Shown piece by piece: positions 2,744 to 9,590 of a stretch of 10,221 nt of DNA. Position numbers and translations under genes: made by a program. Source of the DNA: Candidatus Aenigmatarchaeota archaeon (lineage in GTDB: Archaea > Aenigmatarchaeota > Aenigmatarchaeia > GW2011-AR5 > JAGGXF01); the NCBI GenBank assembly GCA_029932645.1, contig JAOZPR010000015.1, forward strand, positions 8,015-18,235, given 5' to 3'. Position 1 is the first letter of the stretch; each line of letters starts with the position of its first letter. The notes below the pieces were generated by a model. The model worked only from the letters and a program-made list of their open reading frames with translations. It made no database searches and was not told the origin of the DNA.

Positions 2744-3268
2744 ATGTTTACCATTCGCATTCATGGCAGGGCTGGCCAGGGATGTCATAAAGCTGCAAAA
2801 ATCATAGGAAGGGCGGCATTCTTATCAGGTTATTATGTACAGGACTCTGTTGTGTATGGACCAGAGCGCCGCGGCGCGCCTGTAGAAAGTTTTGTCAGAA
2901 TAGACAACAAGCCTATTACCGAAAGAGGGTTCATAATCAATCCGGACTTTATATTAATCTTTGACGACAGCCTAGAATATAAAACAATTTTACAGGACTG
3001 CTCTGAATCAATGCTCATAATAAATACAAAAATGCCCAAGAAGAAATTTCAAAAGTTTGTAAAGAGCATTTCTGTTATAGATGCTAACGACTTGTCGAAA
3101 GAAATTCTCGGTGAGACCTTGCCAAATACAATGATGCTTGGTGCGCTTGTTAAAAAATTTAACAAGCTTTCACTAAAGGTGATTGAAAAGGCTATTGACA
3201 TAGAAATAGGGGAGTTAAAAACAGAGAATAAAGAAGCCCTGCATCAAGGATATAAAAAGGTCAGATAA
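2744..3268 (+). CDS. porC: Pyruvate/2-oxoacid:ferredoxin oxidoreductase gamma subunit (divergent)
   Basis: 'IRIHGRAGQG' (canonical HGRGGQG), 'YGPERRGAPVESFVRID..PI', 'PNTMMLGAL'; first gene in gamma-delta-alpha-beta order. Confidence 0.9.
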   Translation: MFTIRIHGRAGQGCHKAAKIIGRAAFLSGYYVQDSVVYGPERRGAPVESFVRIDNKPITERGFIINPDFILIFDDSLEYKTILQDCSESMLIINTKMPKKKFQKFVKSISVIDANDLSKEILGETLPNTMMLGALVKKFNKLSLKVIEKAIDIEIGELKTENKEALHQGYKKVR

Positions 3269-3301
3269 AAGCATAAAGCCAGAGATTATAATGTGATAAC
3301 A

Positions 3302-3571
3302 ATGCGAGAAACACAAAAAATAAAATATGCTGGGAAGGCTGGCATTGGTTTTTCCAGAATAGCAGAACCGCGAAATATCGGCAGAAAAATAAAAAAGCTG
3401 AAAATAAATAAAAAGGCATGCACCAAGTGTCTTGTCTGCTATGCCCTTTGTCCAGAAGCCGCTATTAAAATCGCTGATGCATACCCTGTTATAGATTATC
3501 ATAAGTGTAATGGCTGTCTGATTTGTCTGAGAGAATGTCCAGACACGGCAATAGAAGAGGTAAGTGACTAA
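3302..3571 (+). CDS. porD: 2-oxoacid:ferredoxin oxidoreductase delta subunit, 2x[4Fe-4S] ferredoxin-like
   Basis: Two CxxCxxCxxxCP motifs (CTKCLVCYALCP, CNGCLICLRECP), located between gamma and alpha. ATG 3302 follows SD-like GTGAT; GTG 3293 is the alternative start. Confidence 0.88.
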   Translation: MRETQKIKYAGKAGIGFSRIAEPRNIGRKIKKLKINKKACTKCLVCYALCPEAAIKIADAYPVIDYHKCNGCLICLRECPDTAIEEVSD

Positions 3572-3572
3572 G

Positions 3573-4733
3573 ATGCCAACAAAAGGTGATTTATTAAGTG
3601 GGAGCGAAGCTGTTGTATTAGCCACCCAACTAGCGCATGTTCAGTGTGCACCTATGTATCCGATGATACCACAAGATGATATTGTTGAGCACCTATCTAA
3701 GCTACATGCTGAGCAACTAACAAGACCGACAAAAAAACAAACACCCATAGGGTTCTTCACGACAGAATCACCTAGTGCGGAACTCAGCGCAGCTATAGCA
3801 TCAGCTGCTACCGGCATTAGAACCTTCACCGCATCAACAGGGCCGTCGCTTGAAGCAATGAAAGAATTGATGTATGTTGCATCAGCCATGCGAATACCCC
3901 TTGTTATGGCAAACGTTTCCCGTTCGCTGGCTCCAGCCAATATCTGGAATGACCACACAGACATATTGTCCTGTAGGGATACGGGCTGGATAATATTTAT
4001 GACATCCAACAACCAAGAGGCTCTTGATACAATTATACAGACATATAAGATAGCTGAGAATCATAAGGTGTTGTTGCCTGCCATTGTCAATATAGATGCG
4101 TTTTTCCAAAGCCATACAAGAGAAAACGTGTTTGTGCCCTCTGAGAGGTCAATAGACAGCTTCTTACCCAAGTTAAAATTGTCTGTCTCTCTGGACATTT
4201 CTAACCCAGTATCTCTTAATCCACCTGTAAAATCAGAGTATATGGAATTCAAAGCACAACAGCATATTGCAATGAAAAATGCTGAAAAGATAATAAGAAA
4301 TATAGATGAAGAATGGGATAGAAAGTTCCACAGAAGATATGGCCTAATAGAAAGGTTTCATATGGAAGATGCTGATTATGCTATTGTAGTTGCCGGCACA
4401 GCTTCTGAAATAGCCAAGTCAGCTGTGTCAGAACTTCGTTCACAGGGTGAGAAGGTCGGTTTGCTGAGGCCCCGTGTTATAAGGCCTTGGCCAAAAAATG
4501 ATATAAGAGAGTCTCTGAAAGATGTAAAAAGAATAGCTGTTGTTGACCAGGATTTCATGCCAGGCTCTGGTGGTGTGTTATATCAGGAGGTTCGGGCCTC
4601 GCTGCCTGCAAACATATTTTGTACCAACTTTATAGCTGGTCTCGGCGGTCAAAGAATATCAAAAAAAGATTTTCTGGATATTTACAAACGACTGAAAGAG
4701 TCTGAAAAAGAGGAAGAGGTTTGGCTGTTATGA
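3573..4733 (+). CDS. porA: Pyruvate/2-oxoacid:ferredoxin oxidoreductase alpha subunit (divergent active site)
   Basis: 'SGSEAV', 'YPMIPQ', 'GIRTFTAST', 'RIPLVMANVSRSL', 'NIWNDHTD', 'RDTGWI', 'GEKVGLLRPRVIRPWP', 'IAGLGG'. ATG 3573 lies just after the delta stop; GTG 3564 is the alternative start. Confidence 0.9.
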   Translation: MPTKGDLLSGSEAVVLATQLAHVQCAPMYPMIPQDDIVEHLSKLHAEQLTRPTKKQTPIGFFTTESPSAELSAAIASAATGIRTFTASTGPSLEAMKELMYVASAMRIPLVMANVSRSLAPANIWNDHTDILSCRDTGWIIFMTSNNQEALDTIIQTYKIAENHKVLLPAIVNIDAFFQSHTRENVFVPSERSIDSFLPKLKLSVSLDISNPVSLNPPVKSEYMEFKAQQHIAMKNAEKIIRNIDEEWDRKFHRRYGLIERFHMEDADYAIVVAGTASEIAKSAVSELRSQGEKVGLLRPRVIRPWPKNDIRESLKDVKRIAVVDQDFMPGSGGVLYQEVRASLPANIFCTNFIAGLGGQRISKKDFLDIYKRLKESEKEEEVWLL

Positions 4734-5632
4734 ACGAGAACGAGCAAAGCGAAAAAATACAATCCTTAAATGACCTGCCAAAAAAGGATTTTTTTATAGG
4801 CGGCAGTAATGCCTGCCCAGGATGCGGAGCATTGATAGGGCTGAAACTCGCGCTGAAGGTTTTAGAAAAAAACACTATTGTCGTAAGTTCATTCGGTTGT
4901 GTAACATTACTAACAACCTATCCAAAAACCGCATTTAAGGTTCCCTTCATTCATATTCCATCTGAATCTGTTGCAGCCGCATCTGGTATATGGCACGCAC
5001 TGAAATCAGCTGGTAAGGATGCAAATATATTATGTTATGTTGGTGATGGGGCAACATATGATTCTGGCTTGCAGGCTTTGTCTGCTGCTGCGACGAGAAA
5101 AGATAATATAATATACATCTGCTACAACAACCAAAGTTATACAGGACACCACAGAAGCTCAGCAACGCCATATGGGGCAAAAACAACAACGACGCCACTT
5201 GGTTCGGTTGTGTTCAGAAAGTCTTTGGCAAAGATTATGGCTTCTCATAATCTGCATTATATTGCTACGGCCAATGTCGCCTATCCGATGGACTTTATAA
5301 AAAAATTGCAAAAGGCGCTGTCTTTTCCAGGTGTTAAGTTCATAGACCTGCTAACACCATGCCCTATTGGTTGGGGATTTGACTCGTCAAACACGATAGA
5401 AGTTGGACGAATGGCTGTACAGACAGGTGTGTGGCCTCTATACGAGATAGAAAACAAAAAATTCTCTCTGACCGTGGCCCCCCAAAGACTTGAACCAGTG
5501 GAACAGTATTTTGTCATGCAGAAAAGATTTTCAGAACTAAAATCAGGTCAAAAAGAGCGCATACAGGAGCATATCAAAAAGGAGTGGAAACAGCTTCTTC
5601 ACAACAAATACTGGGACGTCGCAGAATACTAG
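4730..5632 (+). CDS. porB: Pyruvate/2-oxoacid:ferredoxin oxidoreductase beta subunit (ThDP-binding, divergent)
   Basis: 'ACPGCG', 'FGCV', ThDP motif 'GDGATYDSGLQAL...ICYNNQSY', 'RSSATPYGAKTTTTP', 'TPCPIGW', 'AVQTGVWPLYEIEN', 'QKRF'. ATGA overlap with the alpha stop at 4730-4733. Confidence 0.92.
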   Translation: MNENEQSEKIQSLNDLPKKDFFIGGSNACPGCGALIGLKLALKVLEKNTIVVSSFGCVTLLTTYPKTAFKVPFIHIPSESVAAASGIWHALKSAGKDANILCYVGDGATYDSGLQALSAAATRKDNIIYICYNNQSYTGHHRSSATPYGAKTTTTPLGSVVFRKSLAKIMASHNLHYIATANVAYPMDFIKKLQKALSFPGVKFIDLLTPCPIGWGFDSSNTIEVGRMAVQTGVWPLYEIENKKFSLTVAPQRLEPVEQYFVMQKRFSELKSGQKERIQEHIKKEWKQLLHNKYWDVAEY

Positions 5633-6318: not shown

Positions 6319-7221
6319 TTAACAAACATAATTCAGACCGAGTTTGTCAGCCAGCTCAGTCGCCCTCTTGTGCTCATCTCCCAAGAATTTATTTATCTCT
6401 TGATATTCTTTGGCTTTGTATTGTGGCCTGTACTGTGACATTATATTCACAATGGCTTTTGGTGTGTTCTCAGCAGCCCATTCCAAGACTGGTTTTGCGC
6501 AGCAATCAAAATGATTAGGCAGGACAAGATGCCTTATCACCAGCTCAGCGTCCTTATAGGCAAGTTTATGGTTTCTTGAGACCACAGAAAAATAATTCTT
6601 AACTTTCGAAAGTCGCTCAGCGCATTTATCATTACCGTATTTGAAATCTGAAAGATAAACATCAACTATGCCATCCAACAAGTCCATGCTTTTCTCTGTC
6701 ATGTAAAAATTGGAGTTCCAGACAATTGGTATGTTTCTGTTTAGATGTTTCAAGACCTCTAAGATATACAGTAGGTTTGGTGTTGGTTCACCACCAACAA
6801 AGTTTACATTCCTAATATTCCTCTGCAGTTCGATTACTCTTGCCAGTTCCTTTGGCTCAAGAAAAAATCCTTTCTCATATCTCTGTGATATGCTCCAGTT
6901 TTGGCAATACTGACAATGAAAATTACAGCCAATAAAAAAGATTGTAAAACTTGGCACAAAAAACGGCTCTTCTCCCATGTGCCTGAAATAGGACGATATC
7001 TCTGGTTCGGTTCCAACACCACAAAAGCCTTTCTCGCCTTTTTTGCGGTTTACCCCACAACGTCTCTCACAAAGTTCGCATCTCTCTAAAATTTTTCTGG
7101 CCTGTTTTATTTTTTCATCAAGAAATTTAGTAACTAAGAATCTGGCCTTAGCTTTACCATCTAAAATCTTATAATACCGTGGCAAGAACATCTTATAATT
7201 TTCATGGTCTTCCAACATCAT
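6319..7221 (-). CDS. PflX-like radical SAM protein (COG1313 type)
   Basis: N-terminal 'CELCERRCGVNR...GFCG', 'HMGEEP', radical SAM motif 'GCNFHCQYCQNWSISQ', 'NVNFVGGEPTP', 'PIVWNSNFY', 'DVYLSDFKYGNDKCA', 'IRHLVLPNH', 'VNIMSQYRP'. ATGA overlap with the upstream gene. Confidence 0.92.
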   Translation of the reverse strand: MMLEDHENYKMFLPRYYKILDGKAKARFLVTKFLDEKIKQARKILERCELCERRCGVNRKKGEKGFCGVGTEPEISSYFRHMGEEPFFVPSFTIFFIGCNFHCQYCQNWSISQRYEKGFFLEPKELARVIELQRNIRNVNFVGGEPTPNLLYILEVLKHLNRNIPIVWNSNFYMTEKSMDLLDGIVDVYLSDFKYGNDKCAERLSKVKNYFSVVSRNHKLAYKDAELVIRHLVLPNHFDCCAKPVLEWAAENTPKAIVNIMSQYRPQYKAKEYQEINKFLGDEHKRATELADKLGLNYVC

Positions 7222-7658
7222 AACTTCATCTTTTTCAAAACAGACAAGAGCTTTTCTTTCGCCTGCTTATAGTCGTTCAACAGCTCGCTAATGCGCTCCT
7301 CTAACAGCTGCTCCTGCCCAGGTAAATAATACCAATAGGCATACTCGCCCAATTTGAGGCCTTTGATAACCCTTCTTTTGATACCAAGACCGCGTTGCCT
7401 AGCAATATGATAGAAATCATTGTGCTTTTTTATCTCTTTCTTTATCAAAGCTGCTGGCATAGGACCTCTGCTACGCAAGACTTCCTTGAATTTTATCAGA
7501 GCGCCCTTACCAGGTCTTCGACTCTTCGAAACCCAGCTATAAACAGCCGAGTAGCTAAGACCAAGGGTTTTGGCTATATCTTTTATAGCTATGCCTCTTT
7601 CATGTAAATCCAGGGCCTTTTTATAATTCTGTGAATAGAATTCCTTGCCCCTGCGCAT
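7218..7658 (-). CDS. Helix-turn-helix domain protein, 146 aa, function unknown
   Basis: HTH 'ALDLHERGIAIKDIAKTLGLSYSAVYSWV' followed by a very basic C-terminal region. ATG 7658 is preceded by GGTG. The longer ORF (to 7721) runs through the C/D sRNA. Confidence 0.8.
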   Translation of the reverse strand: MRRGKEFYSQNYKKALDLHERGIAIKDIAKTLGLSYSAVYSWVSKSRRPGKGALIKFKEVLRSRGPMPAALIKKEIKKHNDFYHIARQRGLGIKRRVIKGLKLGEYAYWYYLPGQEQLLEERISELLNDYKQAKEKLLSVLKKMKL

Positions 7659-7692: not shown

Positions 7693-7758
7693 AATGGCTC
7701 AGAAGCTACCCATGCGGTCATCGTTGCCTCTCACTGGGACAGTGTCTTCATCGCCACT
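7693..7758 (-). ncRNA. Archaeal box C/D 2'-O-methylation guide sRNA (dual guide)
   Basis: Minus strand: AGUGGC-G-AUGAAGA(C)-CACUGUCCCAGU-GAGA(D')-GGCAACG-AUGACCG(C')-CAUGGGUAGCUU-CUGA(D)-GCCAUU. Terminal 6-bp stem AGUGGC/GCCAUU, GAU bulge with tandem GA pairs (K-turn), two 12-nt guides; GC-richer island in an AT-rich spacer. Confidence 0.82.
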
Positions 7759-7776
7759 TAAATACTGGTTGGGAAG

Positions 7777-7787
7777 GATTAAAAAAC
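7777..7787 (-). promoter_or_regulatory. Candidate TATA box for the C/D sRNA
   Basis: TTTTTTAAT on the minus strand, ~25 nt upstream of the predicted sRNA 5' end; may double as the oligo-T terminator of acs. Confidence 0.4.
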
Positions 7788-7788
7788 C

Positions 7789-7839
7789 AATCAATAAACA
7801 AAAGTGACAAAAAAGACAATCAATAATAAAATCAATAAT
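7789..7839. repeat. Three copies of AATCAATAA downstream of acs
   Basis: Exact 9-mers at 7789-7797, 7818-7826 and 7830-7838. Confidence 0.6.
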
Positions 7840-7850
7840 CAAAGTAATCA

Positions 7851-9590
7851 TCAAGACTCTTCCAAGGTTGATGTATCACCCACAGGAAGTCCGAGTTCTC
7901 TTGCCTTTAGTATCCTTCGCACAATCTTTCCGCTCCTGGTCTTTGGCAACGAATTCACGAATTCTATTTCCCTAGGATAAGCATGGCCAGCAAGCCCTTT
8001 TTTTACAAAGACCTTTAACTCATCAGCAAGCTTTTGTGAAGGTTTGTAGCCTTTAGCCAGCTTGACAAATGCCTTGATAATTTCCCCCCTTATCTTGTCT
8101 GGTTTTCCTATGACACCTGCCTCTATCACTGCGGGATGTTCAACCAATGCTGATTCCACCTCGAACGGACCAACACGCTCGCCCGCTGTTTTTATCACAT
8201 CATCATCGCGCGCGACAAACCAGAAATAACCGTCCTTGTCTACATAAGCACGGTCACCGCTTAAGTACCAGCCTTTCTCAAAATAGCTGTTGTACTTCTT
8301 CTTGTTCTTCCAGATTGCTCTCATCATAGAAGGCCACGGTGGCTTTGCCACAAGCCTACCTTCTTTGTTCGGACCGAGCTTCTTGCCTTTTTCATCTATG
8401 ACTGCTGTCTCAACACCAGGCACAGGCTTGCCCATCGAGCCCAGCTTAATATCCATGCATGGATAGTTCGCTATCATGATGCCGCCTGCCTCGGTCTGCC
8501 ACCAGTTATCGTGAAAGGGTATACCGAAAACCTTCATAGACCATCTGATTGGTTCTGGATTCAGCGGCTCGCCAACACTTGCCATATGCCTCAAACTGCT
8601 GAGGTCATATTTCTTTGGTATGTCTGTTCCAGCAGCCATAAGCAACCTGACAGCAGTTGGCGCACTGTACCAGACAGTCACATTATACTTGTCCAGTATG
8701 GAATACCATTTGTCCGGATTAAACCGACCAGAGTAGACAACAGTTGACGCGCCATTGGACCATGAACCAAGAATACCATAAGCAACACCAGTAACCCATC
8801 CTGGATCTGCTGTGCACCAGTAAACATCTTTCTCATGTATGTCCAGAACAAGCTTGGCAGTAAGATGCTCCTGCAATATTGCAGCATGGGCATGCATCAC
8901 ACCTTTTGGCTTTCCTGTTGTTCCGGATGTATATAACATGAACGCATAATCTTCTGGGTCCATTTTTCTTATCTTAAAATTCTCAGATGCCTTTCCCATT
9001 TCCTTCTGATAGCTTATTTCCCCTTTCTTTTCTGGCTTCTCTTCATCAATCACAATTATATGCTCCAAATCTGGCAGCTGTCTTTTAACCTTATATATCC
9101 TGTTCTTGAGCTCGCTGTTAGTCACGACAATTTTTGCTCCACTGTCTCCAAGCCTGTCTTTTATGCCTGAAGGACCAAAAGCAGAGAACATGGTTCCGGC
9201 AACAGCACCTGTCTTGAGAATACCAAGAAAGCTTATGTACAGCTCAGGTACCCTTGGTAAAAACAGGAAAACGTGTTCTGCTTTTTTTACTCCCAAGCCT
9301 TTCAATACATTTGCAAACTTATTAGACTCGTTCGCCAATTCCATGAAACTGAACTCTTTCTTGTCATCATCACTTTCCCAATAAAGAGCAACCTTGTTTT
9401 TTCGCCAAGTTTTCAGATGCCTATCAACAGCATTATATGCAGCGTTAATTTTACCACCTTTAAACCACTCTAATTCCTTTTTTGCATCTTTCCAGCTGAA
9501 CTTTTTTACCATTTTTTCATAATTCTTCATATTCGGCTCAATCTTGAGCATTTTTTTCGTTTTTTTGATGACCTCAACCTTCATTGCCAT
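7851..9590 (-). CDS. acsA: Acetyl-CoA synthetase (AMP-forming acetate--CoA ligase)
   Basis: 'INAAYNAVDRH', AMP-binding loop 'LYTSGTTGKPKG', 'YWCTADPGWVTG', 'SVGEPLNPE', 'DNWWQTEAG', 'GERVGPFEVESAL', 'LPKTRSGKIVRR', C-terminal 'GDTSTLE'. SD GAGGTG at 9599-9604. Confidence 0.96.
   Translation of the reverse strand: MAMKVEVIKKTKKMLKIEPNMKNYEKMVKKFSWKDAKKELEWFKGGKINAAYNAVDRHLKTWRKNKVALYWESDDDKKEFSFMELANESNKFANVLKGLGVKKAEHVFLFLPRVPELYISFLGILKTGAVAGTMFSAFGPSGIKDRLGDSGAKIVVTNSELKNRIYKVKRQLPDLEHIIVIDEEKPEKKGEISYQKEMGKASENFKIRKMDPEDYAFMLYTSGTTGKPKGVMHAHAAILQEHLTAKLVLDIHEKDVYWCTADPGWVTGVAYGILGSWSNGASTVVYSGRFNPDKWYSILDKYNVTVWYSAPTAVRLLMAAGTDIPKKYDLSSLRHMASVGEPLNPEPIRWSMKVFGIPFHDNWWQTEAGGIMIANYPCMDIKLGSMGKPVPGVETAVIDEKGKKLGPNKEGRLVAKPPWPSMMRAIWKNKKKYNSYFEKGWYLSGDRAYVDKDGYFWFVARDDDVIKTAGERVGPFEVESALVEHPAVIEAGVIGKPDKIRGEIIKAFVKLAKGYKPSQKLADELKVFVKKGLAGHAYPREIEFVNSLPKTRSGKIVRRILKARELGLPVGDTSTLEES

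Follow-up and report, generated by a model that had tools for sequence, protein, structure and literature searches.

A dual-guide box C/D RNA of Aenigmatarchaeota, conserved among relatives and with homologs in insertions of 23S rRNA genes

The stretch of DNA analysed here (the window, 10,221 nucleotides from a Candidatus Aenigmatarchaeota genome, of the DPANN archaea) carries on its minus strand, at positions 7693-7758, a gene of 66 bases with a complete box C/D guide layout; read from its own sequence and from those of its relatives, it encodes a dual-guide box C/D RNA that is conserved and was previously unannotated. The likely protein partners of the RNA are L7Ae, Nop5 and fibrillarin, with which it is predicted to guide the 2'-O-methylation of G2251 and U2438 in 23S rRNA, its homologs being either free-standing or lodged in 23S insertions that are likely spliced; I put the probability of this reading at roughly 0.85. 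Taken alone, the copy in the window is an ordinary unannotated C/D RNA, which also corrects a gene start. The family as a whole appears to be unusually old, to address two distant targets in the catalytic centre, and to occur either as a free gene or in a 23S intron at one of four sites.

The gene and its surroundings

A sequence-only reading of the window had proposed a dual-guide box C/D sRNA on this strand, and each part that it named, the closing stem, the boxes and the two 12-nt guides, was recovered in its place (Table 1). Box C, AUGAAGA, departs from RUGAUGA at one base; with the CUGA of box D it is able to form a kink-turn, and the C6-D1 pair is present in 34 of 36 aligned copies. The GCAA tetraloop described between D' and C' is indeed present, but it is closed by a single G-C pair and is not conserved in relatives. 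The register of box D' had been left between GAGA and GUGA. In the GAGA register, D'1 is paired with C'6 in 34 of 36 copies, 18 of them by double change, and the predicted target base is consequently G2251; the GUGA register was rejected, since no run longer than 8 pairs is obtained with it in the 16S and 23S rRNA of a genome of the same genus.

Table 1. Features of the sRNA locus in the window (upper rows) and 23S insertions of relatives (lower rows; sites in E. coli numbering, except the ranges of L018 and L007, which are coordinates of those loci)
Feature	Position	Strand	Basis or remark
Dual-guide box C/D sRNA gene, free-standing copy	7693..7758	-	Sequence, conservation, covariation
Closing stem, 5' arm, pairs with 7693-7698	7753..7758	-	36 aligned copies: stem covaries, 88.5% of cells paired
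Box C, variant AUGAAGA	7745..7751	-	C6-D1 pair in 34/36 copies
D' guide, 12 nt; position 5 (7737) opposite 23S G2251, P-loop	7733..7744	-	
Box D', GAGA	7729..7732	-	Alignment column and covariation with C'
D'-C' loop, GCAA closed by one G-C pair	7722..7728	-	Length highly variable among relatives
Box C', AUGACCG; supplies the AUG miscalled as the start of the 167-aa ORF	7715..7721	-	
D guide, 12 nt; position 5 (7707) opposite 23S U2438	7703..7714	-	Compensatory changes
Box D, CUGA	7699..7702	-	
Closing stem, 3' arm	7693..7698	-	Sequence, covariation; stem of 6 bp
Helix-turn-helix protein gene, 146 aa, downstream; true start 7658	7218..7658	-	
Acetate--CoA ligase gene, upstream	7851..9590	-	
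Half guide, L018	5511-5659		
Half guide, L007	4056-4135		
Half guides, L008 and L009	2306/2307 insertions		
Target-cutting insertion, G023	after 2251		719 nt
Target-cutting insertions, G074, G108, G132, G146	after 2252		83-86 nt; C-box-like starts
Target-cutting insertions, G074, G076	after 2440		31-33 nt

The gene sits between protein genes, not in a bulge-helix-bulge intron, and a T-rich gap of 92 nt (7759-7850) separates it from the ligase gene. Close to the latter, the window also holds on its plus strand a four-gene cluster of the pyruvate:ferredoxin oxidoreductase type (2744-5632). On the other side, the ORF caller had masked the sRNA as an N-terminal extension of the helix-turn-helix gene, a suspicion of the sequence-only reading that proved right: the 167-aa ORF, as called, begins at the AUG of box C' (7721), and in the nearest relatives the corresponding frame is closed by stops. 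In a genome of the same genus, the open frame extends to only 150 aa around the 146-aa match, and in one of the same family it has 143 aa; the real start is therefore placed at 7658, and the 21-residue extension is not real. Searched from 7658, the protein is matched in 58 of the 61 genomes of the order and carries no family name.

Searched against Rfam, positions 7693-7758 gave no match at E values up to 5. Their folding energy is not unusual (z -1.32), and a promoter and terminator scan with models of the sigma-70 type returned nothing on the minus strand.

The genome (718,593 bases, 89% complete) encodes L7Ae, Nop5 and fibrillarin, which had been named as the proteins to look for, and also the splicing endonuclease. 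The fibrillarin gene (C27:6696-7339) is broken by a one-base frameshift, both in the assembly and in its probable source run (X1); the absent base is carried by two other runs of the same species (X2 and X3), a further run (X4) being without coverage there, and the gene is unbroken in all five relatives inspected. A gene of the SpoU/RlmB family was found neither in this genome (G000, at its 89% completeness) nor in G001 or G026, while G186 gave a weak match and G192 a clear one. Run on the whole genome, ARAGORN called only 12 tRNA genes, 11 of them with predicted introns; many have probably been missed or mis-called.

Conservation of the family and its predicted targets

Box conservation, which the sequence-only reading had singled out as worth checking, is evident among relatives: boxes and guide cores are kept although the flanks are unrelated at 13 of 30 loci, the window's own counted. 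A first model built from 13 copies matched 39 of the 61 genomes of the order, with 40 matches in all, 31 of them free-standing, 7 inside 23S genes and 2 weak ones (G054 and G011:C5) that do not belong to the family. With a wider model, the family was matched in 77 of 151 genomes taken from the phylum, in 33 of 61 from a phylum with Altiarchaeota titles, and in 35 of 41 from a third phylum of DPANN archaea (one genome of which is titled Nanobdellati archaeon), nearly always as one copy per genome. Both guide cores are present in every match read individually (59 of 63 outside the order, 12 of 33 with Altiarchaeota titles and 8 of 37 in the third phylum). A scan with the pattern of the family yielded 37 loci, mostly under Aenigmatarchaeota titles and four under Altiarchaeales or Altarchaeum; six loci with bacterial titles, having neither C box nor stem, were dropped as chance. 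Against Rfam, the homologs gave sub-threshold matches only (sR1, sR44, SNORD31).

Stem and boxes covary as well. Over 8 pairs of stem and boxes tested in 36 aligned copies, 68 double changes were counted, a number equalled in none of 500 shuffles and compared with at most 22 in controls with slid partners.

No 16S or 23S gene was found in the assembly of this genome, and targets were read from the 16S and 23S rRNA of the same-genus genome G001, with E. coli numbering taken via K-12 rrlB. The best site of the D guide there is 2434-2442, with 9 Watson-Crick pairs (-14.0 kcal/mol) and position 5 on U2438, the very base that the sequence-only reading had predicted; the duplex is as long as PMC4644070 asks for in the part available, namely an unbroken run of 9 or more Watson-Crick pairs that takes in position 5. 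The best site of the D' guide consists of 11 consecutive pairs, 2 of them G-U (-17.6 kcal/mol), with position 5 on G2251; two G-U pairs are tolerated in the scan of the same source, but its strict rule, which counts an unbroken run of 9 Watson-Crick pairs, is not reached by this duplex. Shuffled guides equal the real match on the same rRNAs in 30/300 and 12/300 trials, and with 10% and 4% of shuffles succeeding, the evidence from pairing in a single genome is modest. Stretches of 9-11 nt exactly complementary to the guides also occur at other places in their own genome, at chance level, and were set aside.

Each guide was also compared with the rRNA of its own genome, for which 43 genomes were entered and 42 parsed (G080 was not); six of the 42 rows are without a P-loop site, one is without a 2438 site, and two (G094 and G169) were mapped to wrong letters. 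Position 5 of the D' guide forms a Watson-Crick pair with G2251 in all 36 relatives that have both the guide and its own target, and position 5 of the D guide does so with U2438 in 40 of 41, the sole miss being the wrongly mapped G094. Guide and target change together at several places: in the D guide at position 3 with 2436 (G093) and at position 4 with 2437 (G120, G181), with position 9 facing 2442 as G-C in 15 genomes, A-U in 15 and G-U in 8; in the D' guide at position 8 with 2254 (G161, G181). The D' guide varies at positions 6, 7, 9 and 10 mostly between C and U, as is expected opposite G. Mismatches occur at position 8 in 7 of 41 D guides, five of them on correctly mapped targets (G008, G117, G120, G151, G161), and at position 3 or 7 in a few D' guides. 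Permuted targets reach the observed pair count in 0/5000 trials for D and 20/5000 for D', figures whose significance is inflated by kinship among the genomes. In the peptidyl-transferase loop, the 23S rRNA of G001 (L006 2858-2870) differs from that of E. coli in having U for C at 2452 and G for A at 2453, a trait that is order-wide.

In archaeal C/D particles, both kinks are bound by L7Ae, Nop5 and fibrillarin join the complex, and methylation falls on the nucleotide opposite position 5 (PMC4644070, in excerpt). Along the same line, the sRNA of the window would be made, either by read-through of the ligase gene or from a promoter of its own, and processed, L7Ae would settle on the C/D and C'/D' kinks and be joined by Nop5 and fibrillarin, and fibrillarin would methylate G2251 in the P-loop through the D' guide and U2438 through the D guide.

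Copies inside insertions of 23S genes

Thirty-four homologs lie inside insertions of 23S genes, 19 after position 2306, 7 after 2477, 2 after 2534 and 6 after 2597, sites which I take to fall in helices H84, H89, H91 and H93. Within the order, nine genomes have the whole guide in a 23S insertion, on the sense strand (7 after 2477 and 2 after 2534). The 59 matches read outside the order comprise 19 after 2306, 6 after 2597, 33 away from rRNA and one (G128) near a 23S gene; in the other two phyla, none of the 20 copies read is near rRNA. The copy of G128 (L213) precedes the 23S start by about 200 nt and may belong to the precursor spacer. It was considered that model matches in 23S genes might be false hits on look-alike rRNA, and this was rejected, full guides having been found in the insertions.

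The ends of all 34 insertions can be drawn as two 3-nt bulges flanking a central helix, of 4 pairs in 31 cases and of 3 pairs in three, with 5-8 of 8 pairs in the intron stem throughout; in 32 of the 34, no more than 1-2 of 4 pairs form in the exon-side helix beside the bulge. A bulge-helix-bulge rule, set after the fact, is passed by 34/34 insertions as against 117/1156 slid controls, whereas an earlier and stricter rule, with at least 3 exon-exon pairs beside the bulge, is passed by only 2/34 as against 47/476 controls.

Among the 23 genomes of the order with a 23S gene covering domain V (24 less G010; 67-93% complete), 9 have the free form only, 9 the intronic form only, 4 half a guide, 1 nothing and 0 both forms. 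The four half-guide genomes belong to one family, and their 2306 intron retains one UGA box, the U2438 guide and the D box (Table 1); the P-loop half is missing, and these genomes yielded no full copy. On a tree of 23S exons (22 rows, unrooted, the direction of moves not being given), the 2477 state requires two changes and the free state three.

As to the species of the window, runs X1, X2 and X3 hold contigs that are 90-98% like the 23S gene of G001. The depth of these contigs is 12-18 in X1 and 71-80 in X2, in agreement with that of the fibrillarin locus of the species (13.3 and 69.6), and does not fit in X3 (4-6 vs 16). The X1 contig is ungapped over approximately 2240-2450 and 2478-2760, with 83 extra letters between, split into an insertion near 2449 and one near 2477; with so limited an extra length, there would be no room for an intronic guide in this species.

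The target sites are themselves interrupted in six relatives (L023, L201, L203, L200, L202, L212), by other insertions that follow 2251, 2252 or 2440 (Table 1), and several guides pair fully only on the spliced 23S sequence. A target that is interrupted in this manner could be paired only after splicing, which favours action in trans, and it is in trans, on pre-23S rRNA, that the sRNA would act.

The rRNA genes of the order are rich in insertions (L005-L027, L138-L153), with up to 16 per 23S and up to 14 per 16S gene. A scan of 161 rRNA insertions for other dual guides returned three members of the family and one other candidate, with no reverse-strand match, and missed known members. An insertion of G023 near 16S position 1363 (L152, 94 nt) is C/D-like, with predicted targets near 23S 91 and 142. 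A hairpin with an internal pocket and a kink-loop, resembling an H/ACA guide, is common to insertions after 2477 (L020, L021, L011) and after 2534 (L023, L017), and those at 1926/1927 (L005, L007, L008, L009, L019; 47-52 nt) form a kink-loop-like hairpin with two UGA motifs each.

How might these two placements be related? The 23S insertions would be spliced, the excised intron then serving as the guide. The copies read in the other two phyla being away from rRNA, the free-standing form may be regarded as ancestral, with the guide captured into introns several times and the free copy subsequently lost; four insertion sites would mean at least four captures. I lean towards a single ancient guide for the P-loop and peptidyl-transferase centre, present in at least three DPANN phyla, which would have been drawn repeatedly into introns of its own target, the 23S gene, at four sites, the free gene being lost each time. 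The introns would thereby have become indispensable and would supply one guide per transcript, as do snoRNA host introns, and the window would preserve the ancestral state. This evolutionary account is held at somewhat better than even odds.

Rival readings and known systems

The strongest competitor of methylation guidance keeps the C/D particle as real but makes it mainly a folding chaperone for two distant segments of domain V, with only U2438 or neither base methylated. The two target sites lie 187 nt apart, and double guides of such reach have been proposed as chaperones (PMC4644070, in the part available); most copies of the D' guide retain at least one G-U at positions 6-7, and the four half-guide genomes keep the U2438 half only. 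Yet every one of the 36 D' guides, like every correctly mapped D guide, has a Watson-Crick pair at position 5, at a fixed distance from the box, as methylation needs and chaperoning does not, and the G2251 equivalent is methylated in bacteria, yeast (Gm2619), plants and humans (Gm4196), according to the portion of PMC11542601 at hand. A mainly chaperoning RNA is thus improbable, although the two roles are not mutually exclusive.

Much less credible still are two readings that dispense with one or both of the proposed targets. That the D' guide is directed to the flank of helix 75 (about E. coli 2222-2230), as the sequence-only reading had it, or to another RNA, draws on the resemblance of its exact complement to the E. 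coli stretch and to a few relatives (runs of 9-10 in the 23S of G018 and G031), and on the conserved U at guide positions 6-7, which would pair perfectly there. On the same-genus 23S, however, the run at that flank is of 6 nt as against 11 on the P-loop, and it is the shorter of the two in 17 of 17 relatives; the C/U pattern of positions 6, 7, 9 and 10 and the covariation of position 8 with 2254 also speak for the P-loop, and the helix-75 assignment was given up as very unlikely. Equally hard to sustain is the notion that the stretch is no guide at all and serves the helix-turn-helix gene as a leader or as additional N-terminal coding sequence, perhaps as a cis element bound by L7Ae. It has in its favour the in-frame AUG at 7721 and the fact that 30 of the 31 free-standing copies of the order lie within 2 kb of this gene. 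Against it, 10 of these 30 linked copies are on the opposite strand, stops close the extension in the nearest relatives, none of 19 loci tested outside the order has a helix-turn-helix neighbour, and the guides covary with rRNA.

If the dual-guide methylation reading holds, the retention of both guides in three phyla with reduced genomes makes it likely that Gm2251 and Um2438 belong to the core modifications of the ribosomes in these archaea. The alternative placement in a free gene or an intron would give ORF-less archaeal rRNA introns a concrete job and a reason for their persistence, and the guides in 23S introns would be an archaeal parallel to intron-hosted snoRNAs.

One intronic homolog (L214) has a weak Rfam match to SNORD31 (21.2 bits vs a cut-off of 40). 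SNORD31 is presumably the guide for the G2251-equivalent site. Eukaryotic snoRNA guides and the bacterial RlmB, a stand-alone protein, have the predicted nucleotide in common with the sRNA of the window, and the comparison shows no homology beyond the target.

Among archaea, the available part of PMC4644070 catalogues 489 box C/D sRNAs from seven species, in three of which methylation of G2251 is predicted (alignment position G2520; guides Tte sR7, Pca sR36, Mka sR13 and sR45), that of U2438 (alignment position U2712) being predicted only for sR14 of Nanoarchaeum equitans. The family described here has in common with those sRNAs the four-box layout, the 12-nt guides, the plus-five rule and each target site taken singly. 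In the catalogue rows retrieved, the G2520 guides are partnered with guides to nearby positions (2490, 2544, 2546, 2564) and the second guide of sR14 is without a target; none of these rows pairs the two sites, whereas the present family does so, 187 nt apart and in three phyla. The repertoire of C/D guides is regarded as quick to change in archaea, and long-range dual guides as rarely conserved beyond the genus (PMC6009581, from the sections available).

The junctions of the relatives' insertions resemble the bulge-helix-bulge motif of the archaeal rRNA introns of Desulfurococcus, Staphylothermus and Pyrobaculum, and the splicing endonuclease gene is present in the genome studied here. In the accessible text of PMC3608112, the cargo described for those introns consists of homing endonucleases or ORFs of unknown function, and this 2013 review leaves open whether functional non-coding RNAs arise from rRNA introns. 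The literature searched, with subscription papers and bioRxiv supplements mostly outside its reach, held no report of a guide borne by an rRNA intron, and the portions available of PMC6125680, PMC12124282 and PMC12918454 contain nothing on intron-borne guides. The intron hosts of archaeal guides given in the available part of PMC7994747 are tRNA introns. The nearest precedent is the guide in the pre-tRNA-Trp intron (Haloferax volcanii and sR50 of Pyrococcus; same source, likewise in part), which lies in a bulge-helix-bulge intron of its own target, as the copies of the 34 relatives probably do. Unlike the tRNA-Trp type, the relatives of the present sRNA have as host the 23S gene, with four sites of insertion, and elsewhere the same guide forms a gene of its own, as it does in the window.
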